A stretch of 64,000 nucleotides of DNA. Source: Negaprion brevirostris. Lineage: Eukaryota. The DNA lies in contig JARDVH010000031.1 in assembly GCA_030324005.1 (NCBI GenBank), forward strand, positions 38,349,680 to 38,413,679. Reading direction: 5' to 3'. Positions 8,998-50,113 of the stretch are shown in pieces. The first letter of the stretch is position 1, and each line of letters starts with the position of its first letter. The position numbers were made by a program, and so were the translations under genes. Below the pieces are notes generated by a model, which did no database searches, had not been told where the DNA came from, and worked only from the letters and a program-made list of their open reading frames with translations.

Positions 8998-9882
8998 ATT
9001 ACAAAGTGCAAAGCATAGATAGTCAGAGCATAACAACTTCTGGAAAAGCTGTAGAGGAATCCATCGCTTCAAAGACTTTTGAAGTATCAGAAATGCATGT
9101 GGAGTCCCCTGTGACCTTAACGCATACAAAGAACTATACCAAGGAAATCAGTTTGCAGCAAGAACATACATACAGTGTTCAGACATTTGAAAGTATTTCC
9201 ATGAGATCATCAAGCAAAACAGTTTCCTCTGGAAGTTGGGAAGAATGCCAAAAAGTTGCCAAGACGGAAACAGTTAGAAGTGGCTGTCAAAGTTCGCCAA
9301 AAATCTTGCAAGATCTGAATGATGTCACAGTTTTGTTAGGTCAAACTGCATCTCTAAAATGTCAAATTCTAGCATTGCCAAGACCTGAAATAAAATGGTA
9401 TAGAGAAGATGAAGAACTTGTGGAAGTTAAGAGAATTAAAATTGTTTCTATAACAGAAGATGAAGTTTTGACATCATCTGAATTAATTATAGAACAGATC
9501 CGAGAAGAAGACACAGGAATTTATAAATGTAAAGCTACAAATCCTTTTGGCGAAGTTAAATGCAAAGCCGAAATAATTGTTACTGCAGCCAAACCTGCCC
9601 TTGAGGTTCCCCTGATTCTCCTTGAACTTAGTGATCTAAAGGTGAAGGTTGGTCAGATGGCACAGTTCATCTGTTCTTTTAGCGGGGAATCTTTTACAGA
9701 GGTCATATGGAGTCACGGAAGCACAAGACTGGAAGAATCACGAAGACTGAAGATTTCTCAGAATGGAAATGTTATGTCTCTCACTATCCTAAATGTGCAC
9801 TTAGAGGATCAGGGACAGTACAGCTGTACTACAAGAAATGAAAGTGGTGAAAAGAAGACTACTGCTATACTAATTGTAGAAG
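8998..9882 (+). CDS. TTN: Novex-2-like cassette exon: unique linker plus two Ig domains
   Basis: ctcag|AT TAC...GTA GAA G|gtggtt, 885 nt open. N-terminus VQSIDSQ..YSVQTFES and last Ig (EESRRLKISQNGN..DQGQYSC) resemble human Novex-2. Confidence 0.88.
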
Positions 9883-10173: not shown

Positions 10174-10689
10174 CTGAAGAATCAAAACCCAAAACAGGTG
10201 CAAAAATCCCCACTGATAGCAGTTCAGATAGCACAATAACTGAACAAAGACCACATATCACACCTGATAGCACACCAGAAGTACAAAAGAAACCATCAAG
10301 TCCACCACCGTCTTCAACCAAAAGGCCAACTGGAAAAGAGAAGCTACGAAGCCGAGACTATTATCCTGATGTGGTGCCCTTTGATGAATTGATAGACACT
10401 GGAGCCATAGCACCGATGTTCTTAGAAAAGCTACCTCCAGAAATCATTGTACAAGATGGAGAAGATGTTTTGTTGTTCTGCATCGTAAAAGGTGTACCAT
10501 CACCTTGTGTACTTTGGCTGTGCAACCAGCGCATAGTTGAAGAATCTTCATTGTGTTCCATTAAACATGATGGGTTACTATGCAGTTTAAAAATGCAAAA
10601 TGTCTGCCAAAGGCACAGTGGCACTTATTCATGCAAAGCGGTTAACTCTGCTGGAGAAACAGCGTGCAACACTCTACTTAGAGTGACAG
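10174..10689 (+). CDS. TTN: Additional Novex-like cassette exon: P/S/T/K-rich linker plus one Ig
   Basis: ttgcatag|CT GAA...GTG ACA G|gttggc, 516 nt open, phase 1-1. I-set motifs APMFLEKL, GVPSPCVLW, HSGTYSCKAVNSAG. Confidence 0.82.
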
Positions 10690-11112: not shown

Positions 11113-11160
11113 AAAAGATTCAAGACAAGATTGAACAACAGATAGAAATGGAAGTGAGAG
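11113..11160 (+). CDS. TTN: Small linker exon (human exon 47 equivalent), EKIQDKIEQQIEMEVR
   Basis: ttcatgcag|AA AAG...AGA G|gtaata, 48 nt; resembles human HERIEQEIEMEMK. Not in the ORF track. Confidence 0.92.
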
Positions 11161-12413
11161 GTAATACTTTTATTATTATTCAATAAACAATTATTTAACT
11201 TTGCATTTAACGCTAGGTTTGAACAACTGCTATCAACTTTGGTATTTTGCCATCATGATAAGTTGTGCTGTGTTACAAAGTATAAAAAAATTACACGTTG
11301 TCAATGCCAATCTGATTTACAAACCCAACTTCTTGTTGTCATTCTCATTTTAACCTAAACAAAAAAACCCTTTAACATCAAAAATATTTACTTTGCAGGA
11401 AATGTTATTTTTTTAACCAATATTAGTTCCTCATATTTCAGCTGAATTTCAATTTGAAATTGCTCATTGTCATAATTGATACACTGCAAAAGGGATATAT
11501 AGAGCTACATTCAGTAAGTTGTATTCTAACATGAATTATGTAATGAGAAGTGGTTAAATTAACTCTCAGCTATCTGTCGTTCAATGATTGAATGCTGGAA
11601 ATATATATTTTAGTGGTGATTACTTGAATCAGTACTTTTGTTGCTCTCGTTTACTTCTGATTTTCCAATAAATTTTTTGATAAAGAACTCACAGGCAATA
11701 TTTCATAAAGGAACTTTGACGAGGGTCTTTTCCATTTTTAGCATTCATTTTCTTCCATTTTCATGACATCAACCTATCCTCATGTATTTACACTGCCTTG
11801 CAGATAGCAGTATGTGTTCACGTACGCTGGCATTTTTTTGCATAATATTGTGAATCTAGCAACTATATTAGTTCGAATAAACGCCTTCTCATGCAAATTG
11901 GAAGGATTACAGTTATGGATGAATTTATTTCCATCTATTGATTCCAATTCTAAAAACAATCTCTATCAAACTGGCTGAAAAATTTACCTGTTGTTGAAAA
12001 AGGATCAGAAAGGGCGTTTATTCTGCTGTCTGCAAGTCAGGTAAGAATTGTAATAACCTAGATATCCCCAAATCACAGGGACAGATTTTACATTCAAAAA
12101 TAACAAAATTCTTTCATGAGATCACTTTATGCTTTTTTCAAAATATACACTCTAATTTGATTTTTGAGAAGAAATTGCAACAGTCTGAAGAAGGAACAAA
12201 GAACGAGCGATTTTCCTGCTCAGAATCTTTAAAAAGAAAATGGTCTTGTGTTTATTCGAACAAATATGGTGAGTGAATTTTTTACAATATTTGTGAAAAA
12301 GCTGATGCATTAAGTTCATCATTTCATCATATTACAGATTTGTTCTAAATTTAATTCTTATAATGTTTTGAACTGGCTTTTAAGAAACTTCATACAAATT
12401 TTTTTTTTTGCAG

Positions 12414-15400
12414 AGTTGTTTTTTGGTGCTGGGACAGAATATTTGGAAAATCGAGAAAACCTGCGTGATGCATTTTCAGATGCCGAAGATTATTTAGATC
12501 AGGGAATGGTTTCTGCTGATCGTTGTGCAAGCAGAACATCTTCTATAAGTTCCTGGTCTGAGAATTTCAGGCCATCTTTCACTGAAAAGCTCAAATTCAA
12601 ATCTGTAATGGAAGGAGAACAAGCTATTTTTAAATGCAAGTTGGTTGCCAGCCCAGCACCAAAAATTGCATGGTTTCATAACAACAGACCTATATGTAAA
12701 GATTCAAGAAGGATTATTAAAATAGAAAGCGTAATGCACATTCACAACTCAAGTTTGGAAATCAATAATGTAGAAGAGAAAGATTCAGGGAGTTACAAAA
12801 TATTTGCAATAAACTCTGAGGGCTCAACAGAGGCAACTGCATCTTTACTCATTGCACTTAAAGAAGAGCAAAGTGCAAACTATCTGTGCTTTCTGAAAAG
12901 ATCAGAGATGGTTCACGAAAGTATAGACTCATTAGTTAAGAAGCGGGATGCAAGACTTAGAGTTGATCTCAGACATGTTGGATCACCCTTTGACAAGAAA
13001 TATCAGGTTCAAGGAGCTTTGCGTAAACATTCAAATTCTAAAAGCAAACTGATGCGTACAATGTATTTTGAAAGAACACCAATAAGGCATTATCTGTATA
13101 AGGACAGATCTGCAGAAATACAGTCATCTAGATTATCAGGGAGGGTTCTCGATAAGGATAGTTTGATTGATGAAGATATTAAAATTAAAATGCAGCTTTT
13201 ATTATAATACTGCAAAAGTGGGAAAAAAGAACTGAATCGAAAAATTCTTCAACAGAATGTGCAATTTATCCATCTCATCCTATTTTAATTAAAAAAATAA
13301 AAAATTTGAACAGAAAAATAAAGANNNNNNNNNNNNNNNNNNNNNNNNNNNNNNNNNNNNNNNNNNNNNNNNNNNNNNNNNNNNNNNNNNNNNNNNNNNN
13401 NNNNNNNNNNNNNNNNNNNNNNNNGCAGCAGAAGTATGGGAGATATTGATCACATGGATTTTGAACCTAGTAAGTCTTATTTTGTGCAAGGACAGGAGCT
13501 GTCTTCTGGTGACTATTTCCAGAGAGAGTCTCCTGAATTTCAGTGTCGAATGGAGCGGGTATCAGGACTTTCTCCGCAGGAAGTAGAACCACAAAGAGAC
13601 TTGAAAGAAAATTTTACTGAAGAATCTTCCAAAACAAAAGTCATAAAGTCATTACCAGAGCAATTTCTGAAAGGTAGTTTAATTCAAGAAACAGAACAAG
13701 CACAGGAAAGTCAGTGCTGGTTGGTAGAAGAGGAAACCGATGAATGCTATTTTCAGAAGCAATTTGATGAAAGAGAAGAACCACAGAGTGAACCTTGTGA
13801 AGAACCACAGACACTCTCTGACCAGTGGCTTGGAGGCTTTATTAGTATGCAAAGGGATATAATAACAAAGGGGCCTGGAGAGTTGTTTGAGCCTCCCACA
13901 CCAGCAGTTAGAGAAACACCAATAATTCAAGAAGCAGCAGAGCCTGAAGCCAGTGTTGAATACCCAGAGATTTTACAGAAGGAAAAAGAATTCCATCTGT
14001 TTGACAGAACACCAATAAAGCAAACTCCAGTGGAATTAAAAGAATGTCCAAGTAAATCTGAGTTGAAGGAAGACCATGAGATATTTTCTGACCAGTGGTC
14101 TGAAAGTTTGGTAAGTGTGCAGAACTCATTAGCAAAGGAAACTGAAAAGAACCAGTCAATGTTTGACTATTCCAAAGCAACTGAGATAAGTGGATCCAGA
14201 TTTGGTGAACAAGATGACATGGTGAAAGAATCTACACAAAAACAGATGCCTTCTCCTTTAATAGAAGAAAAAGAAGCCTCCACTCTTTTCAGAACATCAT
14301 TTGATGATAACACTACGGAAATAAGCAAAATTTCATGCAGAGTTGAAGACAAAGAAGACCCCAATGCACCTTTTGACAGATGGTCTGGGAATGTCTTAGT
14401 AAAACAGGGGTTTGGATTTGACCACATAATCATTGATCCAACAAAATCCACTTTCGAGGAAAGTGAGATCAGTGTCTCTAAAATCAACCAAAAAGCAGCA
14501 CAATTTGAAAATGAAGATTATACCCAGATGATAACATCCTCTACTTTGCCAGAGAAAATAGAAACCTCAGAATTTGTCAGTTCCTTGGTGAAAGAAATAC
14601 CAAAAGAGGTGAAGCATATTCCATTTAAATCTGACAAGGTGAACTATGGGACAGCTGTGGAACATTGGCCTGAGAGATTCATTAGTGTACCCAGTGACTT
14701 ACTAACTCAAAAACCTGAAGATGGTCATAAAATATCTGACCAACCTGCATCAGCAGTCAGGCAGGCAGAGGTAGTTAGTATGTCCAAAATCAGGCATAAA
14801 ACCCCACAAGATGAAGCACAGTTTACAGATTCCAACCATGTTGTGAGACATTCTCCCCTGATAGCAAAAATAAAAGAAACATCAACTTTTACTAGAACAG
14901 TGATAAAACAAACTCCAGAGGATATAAAAGAACCTCCATATAAATCTGTTGTTGAAGAAGAACATGAGTCACCTTTTGATAAAAGGCGAGGAAGATTTAT
15001 TTGTGTGGAGAAAGACTTTCCAGCAACAAAATATGAAGATAGCCACAAAATCCCACTGACTGATAAAGGCAGATCAGCAGTAGATCATGCAGAGGTGATT
15101 GATTTATCTAAACTCAGTGAAAAAGAGCAGCATAAAGGCAAGGTTGAAGAATTCACTACAATACTAAGACCTTGCATACCAGAAAAGAAAGAAACTTCAA
15201 TATTTGTCAGTTCACCCATAAGTAAAAGAGCAACAGAAATAAGAGAACCTCCATATAAACCTGAAGTGAAGGATAGTCACCAGATACCTCCAGAGCAATT
15301 TGTCGGAGGTTCTGTTGGTCTGATGAGGGATTTTGTAACTGAAAAGTGTGAAGATACCAATGGAACAACCAATAGGCCCATACCATTACTCAAACAAATA

Positions 15401-16490
15401 GAGACAACTAGCATATCTAAAATCAGTCAAAAAGAGTCACACCCTCTAGGTATGGTTACAAGCACCACCCAGATAATACACACAGAACCAGAGAGCAAAA
15501 TTGAATCAAGCTTTTTCATTTCTTTGAAGAAAGAAACAGCAATGGATTCCCCAAAAGAACCTGCATATGAATTTGGACATATGGAAGATCATGGAACAGC
15601 AGATGACCGACAGGCTAGCTTTCTAACTGAGAAACCTGAAGAGAGTCATGAAATGTATAACCAACCTAAATTTACAGAAACACAGGCTGAGATGGTTAGT
15701 GTAGCTAAAATCAAACAAAAAGAGCCACAATATGAAGCAAAGATTGTGCATTCCACATGGATGGTGAAGCCGCCTTCTTTATCAGATGAAATGGAAACTT
15801 CAACTTATTTAAGTTCATTGAAAATTCCAACTCCAATAGACAAAATAGAATCTCTTGAAAAAGCAGAAATTAAGGAAGACCCTGAGACAGCTGTTGAAAG
15901 TTTTGCCATTATGCACAGAGACTTCCTGACAGAGAACCTGGAAGGTGACCATGGAATAATTAATCAATCGGCAGATAGAGATATAGCAAAGATTAGCACA
16001 TCTGAAATTAGTCAGAAAGAATCACAACAAGAATGGAAAGTTAAATGTTCTACCCAAACAGTGAGACCTTCTCCTTCAACAGAGGAAAATAAAACTTCAA
16101 ATTTCTTCAGTTCATTAGTGGATGAGACACCAATACAAATACAAGAACATCAAAATAATTTTTTAGCTACCAAAGAATCTCCAAAACAAGAGCCTCCGAC
16201 AATTAAACATTGCCCACCTGGATTTCTCCATCATGTTGCATCTACTAAAATTAAGCAAGGAGACTTGTGTGTGCTTGAGTGCCAATTTCAAGGACACCCA
16301 CAACCTACTGTAACTTGGTACAAGGATGAACGCCCAATTCAACGAAATATGGGCTATACTATTCACTCCATGGAAAACCAATCTACATTGAGTATTGGAT
16401 GCACATGCAAAGAAAATGAAGGAGTATATACATGTGTAATATTCAACCAATATGGAACTGCAAGTACATCTGGCAGCCTTACGATACAAG
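12414..16490 (+). CDS. TTN: Novex-3 part 1 (Ig I18-like, repeat-rich unique region, Ig I19-like); apparent break at 13200-13424 beside an N gap
   Basis: ttttgcag|AG TTG TTT; RDAFSDAED, SRTSSISSW, AWFHNNRPI and AINSEGS match Novex-3; ends CAA G|gtaaga. Confidence 0.85.
13780..16150 (+). repeat. Degenerate coding tandem repeat of ~96-108 aa, about 6 clear plus 2 weak units
   Basis: Recurring S-K-I-x-Q/H-K anchors at 14477, 14783, 15107, 15416, 15704 and 16001, each followed by E-T-S-x-F and EPPYK/EDH-like motifs. Confidence 0.8.
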
Positions 16491-16598
16491 GTAAGATTCT
16501 TAATGCTTTATTTATGAAATTATTTTCTTAAATATGTTTTTGCAACATATTTTATGAATGATGACTTCAAATTAATGAAAAATATTTTTATTTTCCAG

Positions 16599-19500
16599 AA
16601 CCAGAACTGTTTGAAGAATCTTTGAAAAGGTTTGACATACATGTTATTGAAGTGCCAGAGAACTATACTGAAGAAGATGATGTTGACCAGTTGCTTGAAA
16701 ATGAGATGGAGTCTTATTTTCCACCATTTACTGTAACAAAATCCACTTTGCAATTACCAAAAATTGCAGTACCGCGACCTTGTCCTGTAAATTTATCTTT
16801 GCTTTCTTCTCCTGTTGAAATTAAAATAACGGCTCCAACTCCAACACCAGAGCAAGATGAAGAACGGAAAGAGTTACTTCAAGAAGATGAATCTGATTCC
16901 AAGCATTCATCTCCAGAACTGTCCTCTCAGACCTCAAAGCACAAATTTACATTTTCTTTTGATGTAATTTCTGAACCCCCACAAGTTTTAAAAGAATTAG
17001 ATAAGATTTGTTGTGCAGAAGGAGAATCGGTGATGTTTGAATGCCTAATTTCTGGAGAGCCAACACCTTTTGTTACATGGACCCAAAATGACAGAGTTTT
17101 AACTTATGATAATAGCAAGCACCGATTTGAAGAGAGTGGAGGAATGTATAGGTTATACATTGATGATGTTTCAGAATCTGATGTGGGGAACTATAAGTGT
17201 GTGGCTAAAAATAAAGCTGGACAAGTACAGAGCGCATCTAGTCTTACAATAGAGCCCACAATGCATAGTTTTGTTTGCCATCTGAAGGATATTGAGCCAT
17301 ATGGTGAGGAGGCAGAGCCGTCTGTCAGCCGTTTTCTCCTCAATTTAAGTAAAATGGGACAAGAAGGTATTGAGCAGCAAGAACAATTATCAGTACAGGA
17401 AGGGCATGTGGACACTTCTCCTTTATATAGCAGAAAAGAACAAACATTAGGTCTAATTTCTGAATCTGGAGACTCTTTGATTTCCACTGCTGATAAATTT
17501 TCGAGTAAAGTTTCATCTTTAAAGGAAGAGGGCATTGAAGCAATAATAGGTTCAAATACTTCCTTTTCTGATGAAATTTCATCTTTGTGGGAGGAAAGCA
17601 ATAAAATAGTCTCAGATTCAACAACTTCCTTTCCTGATGAATGTTTGAGTAAATGTTCATCTTTAACAGAAATTAGTAAAAATGTAGGTCAAAAAATGCC
17701 AGATATAGCAGCAGAACAAGCATATTCTATTAGCGAGTATCTGCGCTCTCTTGATGAAGACCAGAAGGTGCATGAAGCTTGGAAAATGGAAGAGAAAACG
17801 GAACCAAAAGGGGACAAATGTGACTCTGTGAGCGAAATGTATGAGGATAGTATATTTCCAGAAAGTGTATTTAAGCAAGTTGCAGAAAGTCCCAGAGCAG
17901 AAACAGAAGGGAACGGATCAGAGATGAAGTCAAGTGGTAACTCCATAACCCCTGAACCCATTTGTGAAATAAATGTCAATCTAGCAGAAACAGTTTCTAG
18001 GAAAGATGAGGAAGATGAAAATGTTTCCATAGCACGATATCTCCTTACTGCAAGACAGGAAGAAGAACCAATTCATGAAGAGGCAAATAATGAGGCATTT
18101 GGGTACGATGAATCTGGGATAACTTCGATGGAGATTGAGGAAGTAACGTTCGGTGCTGTTTATGACTATTATAATCAAAATGAAGAGTGGGTACGCTCTC
18201 TATCCCCTGAATCCGAAATGTCAATTGAAATTAGCAGTACAATTAGTGATGATGTAGCAGAGAATGGAAGATTTTATACACCACCCTTGGCTTCTGATAA
18301 TTTCAAATCTGCTGTGTCTGCAGAGTCATTCCATACCCCACCACAATCTCCTGGCTATGTGACTCCTCCAGAGAGATTGCCTCCACTTAATGTTGTGGGT
18401 AGGTCCCCTTCTGGCGCTTTGCTAGAGAGGTTTTATACACCACCTGAATATTTCAGATCCCCGATAGATGAGGGTATTGAAACAACACCTCTTGAATATA
18501 TAAGTCTAGCTGCTGAGGAGCAAAGATCAGAGTTATTTTCAACTCCTGCACAGGAAGCTGAAGCAAAAGGAAATGAAACACCGCCAGCATTTATCAAACC
18601 TCTTGTCAGAAAAAAGATCTATGAAGGAGGCACACTTACATTTATCACTGAGGTAATTGGTTGCCCAGTTCCAAATGTTAAGTGGTATAGAAGGAAATCA
18701 TTATTGGAACCAGACCATAGAACTAGACTTGAAAGAGAAGGAGGTTTGTGTATATTGGTAATTCATAGCATCCAGAGAGAGGATGAGGGAGAGTACATTT
18801 GCAATGCTGTCAACATCATCGGAGAAGCCAAAACTGTTACTCAGGTGGATGTTTTACCACAAAATGGAAGGCCAATTGCATTGCCACCCCCAGTGACTCA
18901 TCAACATGTTATAGAATTTGATGTGCAACAAGGCCAGACATCAAGAACTCCTTCACCTCAGGAAATTCTTCTGGAAGTTGAACTTGATGAACATGAAGTG
19001 AAGGAATTTGAAAAACAGATAAAGATTATTACAATTCCGGAATTCACCCCTGACAATAAAAACATGATTATCTCCTTGGATGTCCTTCCTATGATGATTG
19101 CTGAAGAACAAAACATTGATTTTGTAACAAAAGAAAATGAAGATGTGAAAATTAATTTTGAAGCCACTGAAACACCCCCACAATTTATTAGTCATAATTT
19201 TGACCTTGAAATTCCAGAAAACGCTGATGCAGTCTTTGAATGCTCAGTGACAGGTATTCCTACCCCTGAAATAATGTGGTTCAGAGATGATTCACTCATA
19301 ACTTCAGATGGCAAGAAGTACATCCGAACAGATAATCCTAGTCACAGTCTCAAAATAACCAATGTTTGTCCTTCTGACAATGGCATATACAGTTGCAAGG
19401 CAGTGAATAGTGCTGGAGAAACAACATGTAGAGGCTACCTTGCAGTGACAAATTCAAATGTGGCACTTACAAAATCTGGTGCTAGAGCAGTGGTAGTACA

Positions 19501-20178
19501 ATTGGATAGTGCCCAAAAAGGTCCTCAGCAATTAGATGTTGATGTTGGTAATTCTTTACTGCAAAGCAATCAGAGTTCAGAAATTGAGGTTGAGTTTGAT
19601 TTTGAGCAAGGCACAGATGATTCTCAGAAATTGTTGAAACTCATAGCAGTAACCGAGACNNNNNNNNNNNNNNNNNNNNNNNNNNNNNNNNNNNNNNNNN
19701 NNNNNNNNNNNNNNNNNNNNNNNNNNNNNNNNNNNNNNNNNNNNNNNNNNNNNNNNNNNGAAATGAAGAAAAGGGAGAGAAATGTGTAAACATCAATTTT
19801 GATGTATTTGGTGAGCCTGCCAAGGAGGAAACTATTCAGTTTAAAGCAGAGGCTTCTGAAAACTGTTCATTTGAATTTCAAGTGACAGAAACTCCACCAA
19901 AGTTTGAAATAGCCCTCGTAGACTGTACCGCAACTGTTGGGAACTCAGCATCTTTTCAATGCCTTGTGACTGGTACTCCAAAACCTAATGTAATGTGGTG
20001 TATGAATGACAGAATGATTGAAGGTGCTAACTACGTCATTGAGGAAAAAGAATCTGGACACCATTATTTGAACATTGCAAATGTTCAAGAAAGTGATGCT
20101 GGAGTATATAAGTCCAAAGCTGTTAACAAAGCTGGGAGTGCAATCTCAGGAGCTATTTTAAAAGTACTTAATTTGTAA
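16599..20178 (+). CDS. TTN: Novex-3 part 2, alternative terminal exon (four Ig domains, stop TAA 20176-20178); 100-N gap at 19660-19759
   Basis: ttttccag|AA CCA GAA; ITSMEIEEVTF, ALPPPVTHQHVIEFD and RTPSPQEILLEVEL match Novex-3; frame resumes after the gap (NEEKGEKC...FEFQVTETPPKF). Confidence 0.9.
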
Positions 20179-20284
20179 AATAGTACTTTTCTTCTGAATA
20201 TCTTTGAATAATGATGCATTTGTTTTTGATTTATGGTGCATTTATGAATTTGCTAAATACAAACTTAAAAATTTCTTACTACTA

Positions 20285-20290
20285 AATAAA
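20285..20290 (+). terminator. Candidate polyadenylation signal of the Novex-3 isoform
   Basis: AATAAA 107 nt after the stop, followed by a U/GU-rich tract (cttacttgtagttgttg). Confidence 0.6.
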
Positions 20291-20859
20291 ATTATCATAT
20301 CTTACTTGTAGTTGTTGAAAAGGTGGTTCATTTTTAGAGTTGATTTATAATAATTGTACCTTGCAATGGTTTATCAGCAGTGGAACTTTAATTTGTGATT
20401 TTTAAAATATTAGCTGAAAAGTCACTATTACAAAAATAATAATGGTTTTAGAATAGAAGTATAAAAAAACCTAGGTGAGGTCAAAGGTGTTGAAAAATAT
20501 TGATAACAAGCTATTCTAGATCAAACAAGATGACTATTAATGGCTTGGTTGGCATCTTTAAACATGAGATTTTCTGCTCCCCATGGCGCATTTTGCAGTG
20601 GCAGAGGCGGCCCAGCATTGCCAAACAGCAGGATCTTCCAGTCCCACTGCTGTCAACAAGGTTTCCTGTTGTCTGCATGCTCTGCCGCTGGTAAACCCAC
20701 AGTGGAAATCACTGGAAGATCTTGCAGGCGGGAATAGCCGAGAAATGTATTGAAGGACTGTCTTGTTGAATTTAGCACTACAGTTTGAAGTAAACCCAAT
20801 CAATATCCATATGTACATGCACTTATTTGTTTTGCAATTCCTTTGCAGTAAGTTATCAC

Positions 20860-21134
20860 ACTGGCTAGCATTGTTGCCTCACAGTGCCAGATACCTGGGT
20901 TCAATTCCTGGGTGGGGCGACTGTCTATGCAGAATCTGTACATTCTCCCCGTGTCTACATGGGTTTCCTCCAGGTGTTCTGGTTTCCTCTCACAGTATGA
21001 AAAGACACGCTGGTTAGGTAGCCAAGCTAAATCCTCCCTTAGCGTACCCAAACAGACGCCAGAGTGTGGCAACTAGGGGATTTTCACAATAACACGTAAG
21101 CCCACTTGTGACACTAATAAGTAAACTTAAACTT
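20860..21134 (+). mobile_element. HE1-related V-SINE (tail type CTTGTGACACTAATAA)
   Basis: tRNA-derived head GCTAGCATTGTTGCCTCACAG..GGTTCAATTCC and V-domain GGGTTTCCTCCAGGTG. Confidence 0.85.
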
Positions 21135-24925: not shown

Positions 24926-25092
24926 CGGTGGCACAATGGTTAGCACTGCTGCCTCCCAGCGCCAGGGACCCAGCTTCAAGACTCGGCTTGCGTCACTGTC
25001 TGTGCGGAGGCTGCACGTTCTCCCCGTGTCTGCATGGGTTTTCTCCCACAGTCTGAAAGACGTGCTGGGAAGGTGCATTGGCTATTAGCATG
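24926..25092 (+). mobile_element. Truncated HE1-related V-SINE
   Basis: GGTGGCACAATGGTTAGCACTGCTGCCTC head plus partial V-domain. Confidence 0.8.
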
Positions 25093-25392: not shown

Positions 25393-25687
25393 GATGGCAC
25401 AGCAGTTAACACTGCTGCCTCACAGCACCAGGGACCTAGGTTCAATTCCCAGCTCAGGTCACTGTGTGGAGTTTGCATGTCCTCTCCGTGTCTGCATGGG
25501 TTTCTAGTGGGTGCTCTGGTTTCCTCCCACAGTCCGAAAAGATGCACTGGTTAGTTGCATTAGCCATGCTAAATTCTCCCTCAGTATACCTGAACTGGTG
25601 CTGGAGTGTGATGACTAGGGGATTTTCACAGCAAATTCATTGCAGTGTTAACGTCAGCCTACTTGTGACACTAATAAATAAATTTAA
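25393..25687 (+). mobile_element. HE1-related V-SINE (tail type CTTGTGACACTAATAAATAA)
   Basis: Head, V-domain and tail all present. Confidence 0.85.
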
Positions 25688-26850: not shown

Positions 26851-29800
26851 AATTTTCTAGCTCTGTTACCGTCGCTGCTGAAGATAAGAGGGAAGATTTC
26901 TACAGTAGTGACCTCCATGTGTCAGATAAAACATTTGAACTCAAGCCTGAAACAACACCTCTTTCCAGCATTTCAGACATAGAAGCTAAGCCTTTAAAAG
27001 CAATACCAGCATTTGTTAAGAGCATTTCCAGTATAGAGGTAGTTGTGGAAGATGTAGCTAAATTCACTGTGACAATAACTGGATTCCCCAAACCCTCTAT
27101 TCAGTGGTTTCATAATAGTAAAAAATTGACTCCTTCATCAAATTGCAAATTTATTTATGATAGGGATGAATATAGTCTAATTATACCTTATGCAAAATTT
27201 ACAGATGAGGGAGAATATACTTGCTCAGCTGCCAGTGTGCTTGGAACAACTTCATGTAGTGCATATCTGAAGATCAAACCAAAAGATGGTATGGGAGGGT
27301 TTAGGACATCAGCTTCAAAACCTCCAGTTGCAAAACCGACAGATAAAAAAATAAGCAAAGAGGCATTCTCAAAGGAAATTATGTCAATGATTCCAACAGA
27401 AACCATACATACCCTTAGAGGTCAGCCACCACATTTTTTCAAAGAACTTAAATCTGTGCAGTGCCCAGAAGGTCTGCCTGCTAAATTTGACTATGTAGTG
27501 AAAGGTGAGCCAGTGCCAGAAGTGCTTTGGTATAAGGGGAATGATCAGATTCACCAGAGTGTGCACTGCAATCTTAGATCCAATCCTGACGGCTCTGGTT
27601 CATTAACTATCAATAATGCACAAAAAGAGGACAGTGGTTTATATTCCTGCAAAGCTTTTAACTCATTTGGTGAAACAACTTGCACTGCAGAGCTAATTGT
27701 ATTCAGTGGCACTTCTGCTACTGTTGAACATAAGAAACAGAAAGTAGTTCAAAAGCACCATACCAAGTCATACACAAAGACTGTTGGTGATCATGCCACA
27801 GAGTCACGTTTATTCATGGTAAAGTTACCTGGTGAGGCTCAGGCTGAATTACAAGACAGAGATCAACTGGTGTACACAATAGCTTCTGAAGGTAAACATT
27901 CTGTTCACAGTGAGCAGACCGGCACATTGCATGATGTGACTGTTTCTGCTGCAGAAACAGCAATTGCAGGAAAGAGACAGATAATAATGCATTCACAAAA
28001 CACACAAGAAAGCCTAGGTTATATAGAGCAACATTATGAACCAATTAAAAGTCCACCAATGTTTGAATTATCAAGCACTGAAGTACAATTAGATTCTGCC
28101 CTTTGTTTGCCCACAATTGAGGAGAAAACTTTAATTCCAAAGGAAGGCAGTTTTAGTATCAGAGATTCATCTACTATAGATACTAAGACAAAGACAAAAG
28201 AAACAAGCATCTTGTCTGTGGAAAAGGATCTAATTCCCAGCTCCAGGACTGTTGTAGAGAAAGAAATACCAAAAACCGAGCCAGCATACTCTTTGCACAG
28301 CTACAAGGTTGAGGGAGATCAAGGACCACCCAAAGAGGCATTGTTTGGTTTTGAAATTCCTGCATTACAGAAATGTGAAATACAAAAAGAAAGAAAAATG
28401 GAGGCTCATACAGCTGTAGCAATGGAACAGAATAAAATAAAACATGAAATGGCAGAAGACATACAAATGTTAGATGAAGCAAGAGAAGCAAAACCGTTTA
28501 AAGAATTGCCAAAACCATTCTTGATGACTGTCACTGAAAGCCAGAAATCATTAGCAAAGGAATCTCTGTTCAAAGTACCTAAAGCTGATACACAACAAGC
28601 TTCAGTTATGAAAGATAAACTTGTGAAAACTGCTTTAACTGCAGAAGAAAAACAACAGCTCACGAGTGAACACACCAAAGCAATATTTGGGTTAGACAGT
28701 GCAATCTCATTAACATCAAAAAAAGAAGAAAAGACACCTTTGCATTTACAGATTGTTAAGGGACAAGACACTCTGCCCAAAGAAACAACATTTACTTTTG
28801 AAGTACTGGCAGATGAGAAAGCTGACCTCAGAAGGAGCCCAATATTGCTGCATTCATTACTATCAGAAGAACAGCATCTTTTACCTCACGAATACACAAC
28901 TCCGTTACCTGATGTAAAAGATGCCGTCAGAACTAAACCTATGAAAGAGCATATGCCTATTTTATCTCCTCATTATATGGAGACTACATGCATTTTTGAT
29001 AAAGAAAGGATGCAACCTGATGAGAAACCAGCATCTCATGTTGCAGCACACAAACTTGAGAAAGCATACAGCTATTCTGCTGTTGTGGAAGAGAAAGCAG
29101 AATTGTTAGCTGAACAAACTAAAACACTTGAAAAGGAAGTTCCAAGTGTACAGGCTGAAGTTAAAAGTGAGCATTCAGCAGAAGAATACTGCCCAGCTGT
29201 AACTGTACCAATGCACCTATCAAAAGAGAAATGTTTTACTGTTGAAGAGAAAGAACAACGTGCAGTAATAAAGAAGTTGGATGACACAGTTAAACAGTTT
29301 GGTACTACAACAGAGATTAAGATCGTGGAAGATGGTTCACTTGCCATTTCTGAAGCCGTAAATNNNNNNNNNNNNNNAGATAAATATGAATCAAAGCTCC
29401 CTTCAGTTTCTGTGCAGGTTAAAGATAAGGCAATGCCTATAGAAAGCATCAAGACTTTAGAGGCTGCAGAAGAGGACTTTGCAGCAAGAATCCAAGAGGG
29501 TCAGTCAGTAAGATTTCCATTGCTGCATGAAGAAAAACAGCTCATTGAAGAGGAACATTCTTCAGGAATCAAGAGATCAGAGCAAACCATTCTGAAGGTG
29601 GAGAAACAACCACATGAAACACAATTTGCTCAAGTAATACAAGAAAGTAATGCATTCCATAAAGAAACAGCATTCAAGGCTGAAGTTCCTAAAGCAGTCA
29701 CCTTAGATGTTAGTACACAGATTAAGAAAGCATTGCAGTCAGCTTTAGCAAGTGAACATTGTGTCCTTTCTTCTATTTTACTAGGTAGCATAGAACCAGT

Positions 29801-30717
29801 GAAGATTAAGGAATTAAAAGTTCAAAAAGAACCTAAATATAATTTATATACATACCAGATTACTAATATCAATCCTCCCATAGACATAACTCTGTCATTT
29901 GAGGGAGAATACCCTCAGAAAGCTGACTTAAGAAAGGAATTAATAGCTGCCTTCCATGCCATTACTCATGAACAACAGCAGGCTTTGCTAGCCGAGGAAT
30001 TGAATATCATTCAGCTGCCAACTGATAGGTTAGAAAAATTGTGCATCAGCATGGCTCCTGCAAAAGAGATGATCTCACCTGAAGCTGTCAACATTGCTGA
30101 AAGCACCTCTGAAGTGGCTAGGTATGGAATGCATATGACTGAACAGAAAATTCAGACAGCAGAGAAGACAGTTGTTCAAGAAATGATAGTAACCACTGAA
30201 TCAGAGGATTTTATTCAGAAGTTTAAATCTGTAGAGACAATTAAAAAAGGGGCAGTCGTTAGTCACATAAGAGATGTTGGTGGTGTGATAATTACTAAAG
30301 ATGCCCTTTCAGCACCTGTCCCAGTAGAGCAACCAACAGAAATTCTTAAAAAAGAGAAGAAAATTGAGGAGCTTATAGTTACTAGCATTTCTAAACCGAA
30401 AAAGCCAGATGAAACACCGATAAAAATCACCAAAGACATTCCAGTAATTACTAAAGGGCTTACAGATATCATTGTAGATGAAGATAGTGATGTAAAATTA
30501 AGCACAGTCATTACAAAAGTTAACAAGGTAAATTGGTATATCAATGGGAAGAAAATCATTTCAAAAAATGAGTTCAAATGTTTACAAGAACTTGACACTT
30601 ACTCACTTATAATCAACAATGTACAGAAAGAGGACCATCAAGGAGAATATGTCTGTGAGGCACTGAATGAAGCTGGAAAAGCAACTACTTCTGCAAAACT
30701 CACAGTTATTATAAGAG
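26851..30717 (+). CDS. TTN: N2B exon (I24, I25, N2B unique sequence of ~910 aa, I26); human exon 49 equivalent
   Basis: tatacag|AA TTT TCT AGC (EFSSS)...ATA AGA G|gttgga, 3867 nt open (15 N). PPHFFKELK, NPDGSG, RIQEGQSVRFPL, EDHQGEYVCEALN. Confidence 0.96.
28275..30000 (+). repeat. Cryptic ~74-aa (222-nt) periodic repeat in the N2B unique sequence
   Basis: KE/IE anchor codons at 28332, 28557, 28779, 29001, 29223, 29439 and 29661. Confidence 0.75.
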
Positions 30718-31639: not shown

Positions 31640-31918
31640 TGCCTCCGTCTTTCAAGAGGAAGATTGAACCACTGGAGGTAATAGTTGGACAAGCTTCTCA
31701 GTTTGAATGTGAAGTTGATCCTATTCCTGATGTAAGGTTCCAGTGGTTTCGAGCAAGAGCTGAACTTCGCGATAGTGAGAAGTACAGGATTGTGAATGAG
31801 AAATACATCTCCGTCTTGAAACTGCTGAAGCCTCAGCTAATTGACTGTGGTGAATACACCTGCAGAGCATCCAACCAGTGTGGTAGTGTTAGCAGCACAG
31901 CCAAACTGATGGTGACTG
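31640..31918 (+). CDS. TTN: Ig I27 exon (human exon 50 equivalent)
   Basis: catag|TG CCT...ACT G|gtaagt, 279 nt; KRKIEPLEV, VRFQWF, DCGEYTC. Confidence 0.96.
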
Positions 31919-47990: not shown

Positions 47991-50113
47991 AGGATTCACT
48001 AGGGCACTGGTTCCAGGTGCAGGTTGTTACAACAATACAAAGNNNNNNNNNNNNNNNNNNNNNNNNNNNNNNNNNNNNNNNNNNNNNNNNNNNNNNNNNN
48101 NNNNNNNNNNNNNNNNNNNNNNNNNNNNNNNNNNNNNNNNNNNNNNNNNNNNNNNNNNNNNNNNNNNNNNNNNNNNNNNNNNNNNNNNNNNNNNNNNNNN
48201 NNNNNNNNNNNNNNNNNNNNNNNNNNNNNNNNNNNNNNNNNNNNNNNNNNNNNNNNNNNNNNNNNNNNNNNNNNNNNNNNNNNNNNNNNNNNNNNNNNNN
48301 NNNNNNNNNNNNNNNNNNNNNNNNNNNNNNNNNNNNNNNNNNNNNNNNNNNNNNNNNNNNNNNNNNNNNNNNNNNNNNNNNNNNNNNNNNNNNNNNNNNN
48401 NNNNNNNNNNNNNNNNNNNNNNNNNNNNNNNNNNNNNNNNNNNNNNNNNNNNNNNNNNNNNNNNNNNNNNNNNNNNNNNNNNNNNNNNNNNNNNNNNNNN
48501 NNNNNNNNNNNNNNNNNNNNNNNNNNNNNNNNNNNNNNNNNNNNNNNNNNNNNNNNNNNNNNNNNNNNNNNNNNNNNNNNNNNNNNNNNNNNNNNNNNNN
48601 NNNNNNNNNNNNNNNNNNNNNNNNNNNNNNNNNNNNNNNNNNNNNNNNNNNNNNNNNNNNNNNNNNNNNNNNNNNNNNNNNNNNNNNNNNNNNNNNNNNN
48701 NNNNNNNNNNNNNNNNNNNNNNNNNNNNNNNNNNNNNNNNNNNNNNNNNNNNNNNNNNNNNNNNNNNNNNNNNNNNNNNNNNNNNNNNNNNNNNNNNNNN
48801 NNNNNNNNNNNNNNNNNNNNNNNNNNNNNNNNNNNNNNNNNNNNNNNNNNNNNNNNNNNNNNNNNNNNNNNNNNNNNNNNNNNNNNNNNNNNNNNNNNNN
48901 NNNNNNNNNNNNNNNNNNNNNNNNNNNNNNNNNNNNNNNNNNNNNNNNNNNNNNNNNNNNNNNNNNNNNNNNNNNNNNNNNNNNNNNNNNNNNNNNNNNN
49001 NNNNNNCATGCTGTCAAAGACACCCTGGCTTGGTTCAGGTCTGCACTTTGTTAAAGACTCTCTTTTAATTTCAGAGTGAGTGATGTTTCCTACTTGAGAC
49101 GTGTACTTACAGACTTTGGGAGGTTGAATTGAATCAAAGTACACGTTCACAATTTAACCCCATTTTAAAGCCAAATAAATTCTTCCCTTACTTTTATATT
49201 CTCACTGTAAGTTCATGTGCTTGCATTTATAATGTAAACTGTCTATGAAACTTCCCCTCATTAACCCCTTCTATTTCAGCCCTTTTCTCTCTTTCAATTT
49301 TTATCTCTCAACCTTTTTCTTATCCATGTCTTCTCAAGCCCTTCTTTCCCACTTGTTTCCCTCTCTTATCCCAACTTTCTCTGAATTAGTGGATGGGATT
49401 TTCCACGCAACCTGCTATGTGTTTCATGGCAGCGGAGTGGCCTGCCATTGGCCAGCGCTCCTTTCCACAGCGAAACCTGTGGTGGGAGTATGATCTTGGT
49501 AGGACCGTAAGATCACATTGCCATAACCATACAGAAAGCTCCAGCCCTAGGCTTTCCTAGTGCTCCTCTCCTCCTCACCCCCCGAATTTAATACATCATT
49601 GGCAAACCACTTAATATGCACGTGGCTGGGATTCACAAACGTAAATCTGGCTGTATCCTGGAACCTGTTTCTCAAGTGAAGTGGAGAATTGGTTAAATGT
49701 AATTTAAAAGACTCAATTTATTTTTAAAACAAAACATTTTTAACTTTAAGACTTTTGAGTTAGTTTTTGCTCTGTTTATGAAAATTGCTCACATTTGAAT
49801 GAGCATGAATTTTCTGATGTTGCTCCAAAATGACAATGATCCGCAACATGATAGTTATGTGATGATTTGTCAACATGTAATCTTCTGAGAAAATTGTGGA
49901 AACGTTTGGAGAATTGTAACACACGCCATTTAAAGTAAGGTTGATTGGAAATCAAAACCAATCAATTGTTTTCATCGCAGTATATTTCTGATTATTTGGA
50001 GATCATTCTGATTATCATCAATTTTTATTTCACACATCCATTACCTTCAGTTGTGTGCACATAAAATCTTTGGCTTTCTTTTCATTCTATTCAATAAATG
50101 TTACATTTTATAG

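Follow-up and report, generated by a model that had tools for sequence, protein, structure and literature searches.

A predicted phase-1 intron divides the Novex-3 element of titin in the shark Negaprion brevirostris

Positions 16491-16598 of the titin locus of the shark Negaprion brevirostris almost certainly constitute a genuine U2-type spliceosomal intron, to judge from the sequence, and one which divides Novex-3 in what is apparently an unpublished variant of its structure. Coordinates are those of the window, the whole stretch of 64,000 nucleotides that was analysed, which holds the proximal and middle I-band part of the gene (Table 1). Rather than forming a single terminal exon, Novex-3 is split at this site and is encoded by at least two exons, and two N gaps could hide more introns; we regard it as probable that the intron is both removed constitutively and ancestral. 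The intron is demonstrated, at the level of sequence, in one genome only. No report of an intron inside Novex-3 was found in the literature, as judged mostly from listings, and nothing there paired 'novex-3' with 'shark'; public automated shark annotations may already model the split. The existence and conservation of the giant Novex-3 exon are described as a long-standing mystery (PMC6098106).

Table 1. Features of the titin locus in the window
Feature	Position	Strand	Remarks
Exon 44			5' of Novex-1 in the titin exon order of the window
Novex-1	8998-9882
Novex-2	10174-10689
Exon-47 equivalent	11113-11160	+	48 nt, phase-1 donor
Exon 48' equivalent	12169-12268	+	two acceptors: 100 nt from 12169, 85 nt from 12184
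Novex-3 part 1 (internal exon)	12414-16490	+	about 4.1 kb including a 100-N gap; ends in phase 1
Break in part 1	13202-13424		about 40 orthologous residues missing
Ig I-set domain, I19 equivalent	16220-16486	+	Pfam PF07679, positions 2-90 of 90, E 7.5e-20
Predicted intron	16491-16598	+	phase-1 GT-AG (U2-type), 108 nt
Novex-3 part 2 (terminal exon, coding part)	16599-20178	+	stop TAA 20176-20178
AATAAA poly(A) signal	20285-20290	+	sole canonical one in 20176-20700
N2B exon	26851-30717	+	3867 nt; phase-1 acceptor 10.4 kb 3' of donor 16490
First middle-Ig exon (I27 by position; label from the preliminary description)	31640-31918	+	phase-1 acceptor 15.1 kb downstream

Gene setting

The Novex-3 element consists of six Ig domains, I18-I23, lying between exon 47 and N2B and followed by a stop and a poly(A) signal of its own; the domain names are those of PMC13649281 and were assigned in the shark by order and colinearity. 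Part 1 comprises, in order, a short unique start, Ig I18, the long unique is19 and Ig I19, and part 2 comprises a linker with a conserved PVEIKITAPTPTPEQ motif, Ig I20, the unique is21 and Ig I21-I23. Part 2 is 85% identical to that of the basking shark, Cetorhinus, and a nine-row tree places the two together at 95/95. From 31640 on, some 33 Ig exons follow. The assembly is a draft, with 14 N runs within the window. Exon 47 is also 48 nt long in the frog (size table of PMC5852582). The exon at the Novex-1 position is 885 nt long and holds two Ig domains, against Novex-1 sizes of 372-390 nt in the table of eight bony vertebrates in PMC5852582.

Exon 48' is found here in both of the sizes (100 and 85 nt) reported by Chen et al. 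2018 (PMC5852582), and joining it to exon 47 shifts the frame. When it is translated in the exon-48 frame, shark, ray and chimaera agree at 86-95% identity across 37 residues; this conserved poison-type exon thereby appears to extend to cartilaginous fish. Its reading as a conserved first coding exon, with which four of the six chondrichthyan models start, was weakened by a TTG in the window where the models have Met.

Splice signals and composition of the intron

The intron opens at CAA G/GTAAGA (16490/16491) and closes at TTTTATTTTCCAG/AA CCA (16598/16599); a preliminary description of this DNA had reported a 108-nt phase-1 intron with these letters and coordinates, and the sequence, when re-read, agreed. 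The intron had also been called AT-rich, which the composition bears out: it is 18.5% GC and 47% T, whereas the flanking coding DNA, sampled in 493 overlapping windows of 108 nt, has 38.6 +/- 4.2% GC with a minimum of 27.8%, and its T content does not exceed 38%. The in-frame TAA described at 16529 is present, although it is not the sole stop, being one of three together with TGA at 16559 and TGA at 16562; both other frames of the intron carry stops as well. The length of 108 nt falls in the 82-193 nt range of 12 of the 13 neighbouring introns that were measured.

The U1-like donor, AAG/GTAAGA, matches seven of the nine positions of the donor consensus, taken here as general background, and 25 of the 29 local donors have seven matches or fewer. 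A branch-point-like TTAAT places its A at 16575, 23 nt 5' of the intron end. AG occurs inside the intron only at 16494 and 16597, the sequence is AG-free from 16496 to the 3' end, and that end consists of a pyrimidine tract followed by CAG. Sites were scored with a matrix made from 30 acceptors and 29 donors of the window's own exons (33 auto-called, with three and four doubtful sites removed), a crude instrument that is biased to Ig-exon ends and under which the exon-47 donor and the 48' acceptors score below zero. With this matrix the acceptor reached 13.5 bits, against a median of 9.8 for the 30 local acceptors, and topped all 983 AG decoys (623 in Novex-3 coding sequence and 360 in N2B); the donor reached 8.6 bits, under the median of 11.5 for the 29 local donors, and was equalled or exceeded by 4 of 489 GT decoys (2 of 323 in Novex-3, 2 of 166 in N2B). 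A small RNA hosted in the intron was discarded as an explanation, the best Rfam score being 25 bits against a cut-off of 45 (E 0.28), in a match which straddles the acceptor.

Comparison with orthologous proteins

Named proteins of the Novex-3 exon were available from six chondrichthyans (Pristiophorus, Cetorhinus, Chiloscyllium, Stegostoma, Callorhinchus and Mobula), gar, a frog, two marsupials and 12 birds. Thirteen orthologues, with three of the 12 birds taken in, were aligned to a spliced and to a read-through model; these proteins are automated models in which exon boundaries are invisible. The spliced form aligned better in all 13, and the 36-residue insert was present in none of them. 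Coding read-through of the 108 nt was rejected, given its three stops and its weaker scores in 13 of 13 orthologues. The spliced join reads ...GSLTIQ-E-PELFEESLKRF, and the Cetorhinus orthologue carries the identical junction, TIQ-EPELFEESLKRF, in agreement with the earlier statement that the flanking frames join perfectly.

The position of the cut was examined by scoring 1757 stop-free excisions against the six chondrichthyan orthologues. The top score was common to three cuts yielding one protein, and 16491-16598 is the only GT-AG excision among these three; six of the 1757 are GT-AG, and the five others fall 65-407 points lower. Together, the top rank of this GT-AG excision and the fit of the spliced form to the orthologues indicate that the 108 nt are non-coding, with intron ends exactly at the orthologue-defined gap.

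The Novex-3 protein is colinear with those of birds, marsupials, frog and gar. Up to the end of I19 it spans 1178-2064 residues in the six chondrichthyan models as against 578-584 in the marsupials; is19 (13427-16190) is very long and variable in chondrichthyans, and BLASTP self-comparison found no internal repeats in it. A search with the linker among representative sequences gave 24 matches, of which the top three are the chondrichthyan models already known and 18 are unnamed and may include more bony-vertebrate orthologues. In birds, marsupials, gar and sharks, public annotation often treats the exon of Novex-3 as a gene in its own right ('unc-89-like', 'titin-like' or 'uncharacterized'), which may be an artefact or may reflect an internal start.

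Integrity of the Novex-3 reading frame

Between the exon-48 acceptor and the stop codon, the open frame is interrupted at 13202-13424, a break overlooked in the preliminary description, and the frame differs across a 100-N gap in part 2 (19660-19759). At the former site homology ends at 13201 and a stop follows at 13205; a non-homologous, AT-rich stretch of 123 nt with stops (13202-13324) leads into 100 N. This stretch has no GT at its start and no match elsewhere in the window. Because 1021 open codons come after it, the break is a probable assembly fault; if it were real, Novex-3 would be truncated. The reverse strand of 13202-13324 reads like the 3' end of an intron.

Position at an Ig-exon end

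The I-set domain of I19, the second of the six, ends one codon before the donor, which itself sits 35 nt (11 codons, phase 1) after the Ig N-x-x-G motif. GT stands at +35 in 34 of the 42 Ig motifs of the window, namely at 32 exon ends, once inside N2B and at this donor; it does so in none of the five other Novex-3 Igs. The exon after the intron begins with E-P, like 22 of the 30 titin exons in the window. This position at an Ig-exon end is a more informative feature than phase, and had been overlooked in the preliminary description.

Compared with the phase-1 introns at the ends of I-band Ig exons in titin, the intron shares the +35 register after N-x-x-G, the phase, the length class and the E-P start of the exon that follows; it differs in lying inside Novex-3, in its GC content (18.5% versus 26-35%) and in being followed by a 120-residue linker instead of an Ig. 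The N2B exon (exon 49) offers a second comparison. Like part 1, it measures about 4 kb, has phase 1 at both ends and consists of long unique sequence closed by an Ig; unlike part 1, which is a candidate, it is a proven cassette, the similarity of their Igs is only generic, and the next acceptor lies 108 nt after part 1 as against 0.9 kb after N2B. The Ig comparison of part 1 with N2B gave 28% over 97 aa, a generic value, and 'N2B-like' accordingly refers to architecture only. A relationship of part 1 to N2B, Novex-1 or Novex-2 was rejected, since the Igs showed only generic similarity, at 27-33% for I19. The N2B-internal Ig has a GT at the canonical Ig-exon-end position (27705/27706, TTCA/GTGGCA, weak), and the real N2B donor lies 6 nt later than the canonical Ig-exon end.

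Bony-vertebrate Novex-3 (TTN exon 48) resembles the shark element in its place between exon 47 and N2B, its six Igs I18-I23, its unique insertions and its own stop and poly(A). It differs in being a single exon there, as reported in PMC5852582, against at least two exons in the shark. The earlier statement that human Novex-3 is one terminal exon is in keeping with Table 1 of that source, where each of eight bony vertebrates has a single exon, 6077-8039 nt long. The exon 48' and Novex variants of Chen et al. 2018 (PMC5852582) provide a likeness, in that the Novex-3 route already included more than one exon and several variants; exon 48', however, precedes exon 48 and causes a frame-shift, whereas the shark intron interrupts the coding region and leaves the frame intact.

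Predicted splicing route

We propose that an ordinary U2 intron is taken out almost every time that the Novex-3 route is chosen. Exon 47 would be joined to part 1 (12414-16490) and part 1 to part 2, which would run from 16599 to a poly(A) site near 20285, and the product would be the normal six-Ig Novex-3 protein, made from two exons. Near-constitutive removal is expected because the intron is short and AT-rich between GC-richer exons and a strong acceptor follows its donor by 108 nt, and because the rival acceptors are 10-15 kb off, past a poly(A) signal.

Of the alternative junctions put forward earlier, the coordinates (11160, 26851 and 31640) are correct, and 16490->16599, 16490->26851, 16490->31640 and 11160->16599 are all in frame; that isoforms other than the spliced Novex-3 exist through them is supported by no result. 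Neighbouring introns are of phase 1, as described, in every I-band case checked, and phase is symmetric at both ends of part 1, as in a cassette. As a ground for new isoforms the argument from phase falls away, since phase 1 is the rule for I-band exons in the window and phase compatibility is therefore uninformative. It was also an overstatement that a single-exon Novex-3 rules such isoform classes out: in human muscle, internal donors of exon 48 are joined to exon 50, one 108 nt inside (13 samples, 45 reads) and one 104 nt inside (9 samples, 34 reads), in Table S5 of PMC5874998, which lists events under its authors' filters. Around the end of human I19, as placed with the help of marsupial proteins, the same table lists no junction at 179613xxx-179614xxx, and one single-read row at 179615689. 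New isoform classes are possible but hypothetical.

Discussion

The donor lies at the canonical Ig-exon end, which favours an ancestral boundary, lost in bony vertebrates, over a new gain. According to this proposal, the intron would mark where an Ig-ending exon originally had its 3' boundary; Novex-3 would have been built from an N2B-like giant exon (I18-is19-I19) and a terminal exon (I20-I23), and the two would have fused through intron loss in the bony-vertebrate line. The opposite history, a recent gain at a proto-splice site in a shark lineage, with constitutive removal and no bearing on the origin of Novex-3, is distinctly unlikely. It would account for the absence of the intron from the eight bony vertebrates tabulated in PMC5852582 and for the singular 'the Novex-III exon' of an elephant-shark paper, in which exons were drawn by eye against human (PMC12241362), and exon-end-like bases at Ig ends might attract insertions. 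Yet register and phase match an Ig-exon end exactly, and a random gain among some 7,400 coding positions would meet one of the five Ig ends inside the element roughly one time in 1,500, a figure of simple arithmetic which proto-splice bias would raise. No source copy or repeat of the 108 nt was detected elsewhere in the window (best local match E 0.06), and intron turnover in chondrichthyans is reported to be low, from the elephant shark (PMC3964593); a G-starting codon follows I19 in five of the six other chondrichthyans versus 1 of 12 bony vertebrates, a weak indication confounded by kinship. Scarcely credible is a third account, in which the 108 nt are either an artefact of assembly or an insertion that disabled Novex-3, by now a dead element. 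The draft state of the assembly, with its many N runs, and the foreign stretch at 13202-13324, which lies within Novex-3 too, speak for it; against it, the intron is over 3 kb from both gaps, its exact GT-AG ends fall at the orthologue-defined gap, and 1021 and 1019 open codons extend on its two sides at 75-84% identity to Cetorhinus.

Departures from constitutive removal might take two forms. Part 1 might be a regulated cassette, skipped (11160->16599) or joined to N2B or I27 (16490->26851/31640) at meaningful levels, and the product would be either a shortened Novex-3 or a full-length titin enlarged by an element of 1,300 residues; this we consider rather unlikely. The four in-frame junctions are consistent with such use, as are the resemblance of part 1 to the N2B cassette in size and layout (4077 versus 3867 nt) and the higher score of the part-2 acceptor (13.5 bits) than of the part-1 acceptor (10.7). 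Variants of exons 45, 46 and 48' point to loose titin splicing in other species (PMC5852582), and the human junctions from within exon 48 to exon 50 occur at trace levels (PMC5874998). In mammals the N-terminal part of Novex-3 is reported to anchor laterally and I21-I23 to bind Pin1 and TBC1D4 (PMC13649281), and the intron divides the one from the other. The generality of phase 1 in the I-band argues the other way, as does the joining of part 1 to part 2 in all six chondrichthyan models. A search for part-2-only proteins among 1738 candidates of 386-2000 aa gave 18 matches, in birds and unrelated proteins and none in a shark, a weak test; the protein searches covered lengths below 5000 aa, with titins above 5000 aa outside them, and representatives of 90% clusters (two members for Cetorhinus, three for Mobula), isoforms within the clusters also being outside. 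Heart and muscle cDNAs of the elephant shark (N2BA and N2A), as described in PMC12241362, are without Novex-III sequence, although PCR disfavours a 4-kb insert. That part of the intron's fate might instead be regulated retention is highly improbable: Novex-3 would then stop after I19 and GKILNALFMKLFS, without I20-I23, by appending 13 residues and leaving a 3' UTR of 3.75 kb. The shortness of the intron, its in-frame TAA at 16529 and the lack of an exon junction 3' of that TAA are compatible with this. Typical retained introns, however, show the opposite of low GC and a strong acceptor, and this intron has both. Such a 3' UTR is itself unfavourable, no canonical poly(A) signal was found in 16491-16700, in the intron or just after it, and a search among 27 candidates of 199-2000 aa gave one match, unrelated, and no protein with such an end, which is very weak evidence. 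Introns 44-46, nearby, are reported to be retained in tetrapod titin (PMC5852582), which favours retention.

If the intron is simply constitutive, as we favour, the protein is unchanged and its significance is evolutionary and modest. Its place at a canonical Ig-exon end nevertheless offers a checkable origin for Novex-3, in which an N2B-like exon and a terminal exon would have fused, and provides a natural dividing line: the N-terminal, anchoring part lies on one side of it and I21-I23, the signalling part, on the other. For annotators, Novex-3 is not a single exon across all jawed vertebrates. The split adds a potential cassette made of whole Ig domains; separate use, of which there is a small chance, would matter. 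A further reading, unlikely as a whole, combines the ancestral two-exon state with its continued use in sharks: part 1 (I18-is19-I19, about 1,300 residues) would be a second N2B-like cassette, open to splicing into full-length titin or to skipping from Novex-3, and the lateral-anchor and signalling halves would be deployed separately, having been locked together in bony vertebrates via loss of this intron.

Two further features of the window lie outside Novex-3. Repeated SINE-like elements occur at about 20850-21100, 24930-25070 and 25400-25680, which we take to resemble shark HE1, a candidate name. An N gap of 964 lies in an AT-only stretch between Ig exons, at about 48000-49010, and accounts for spurious ORFs there.
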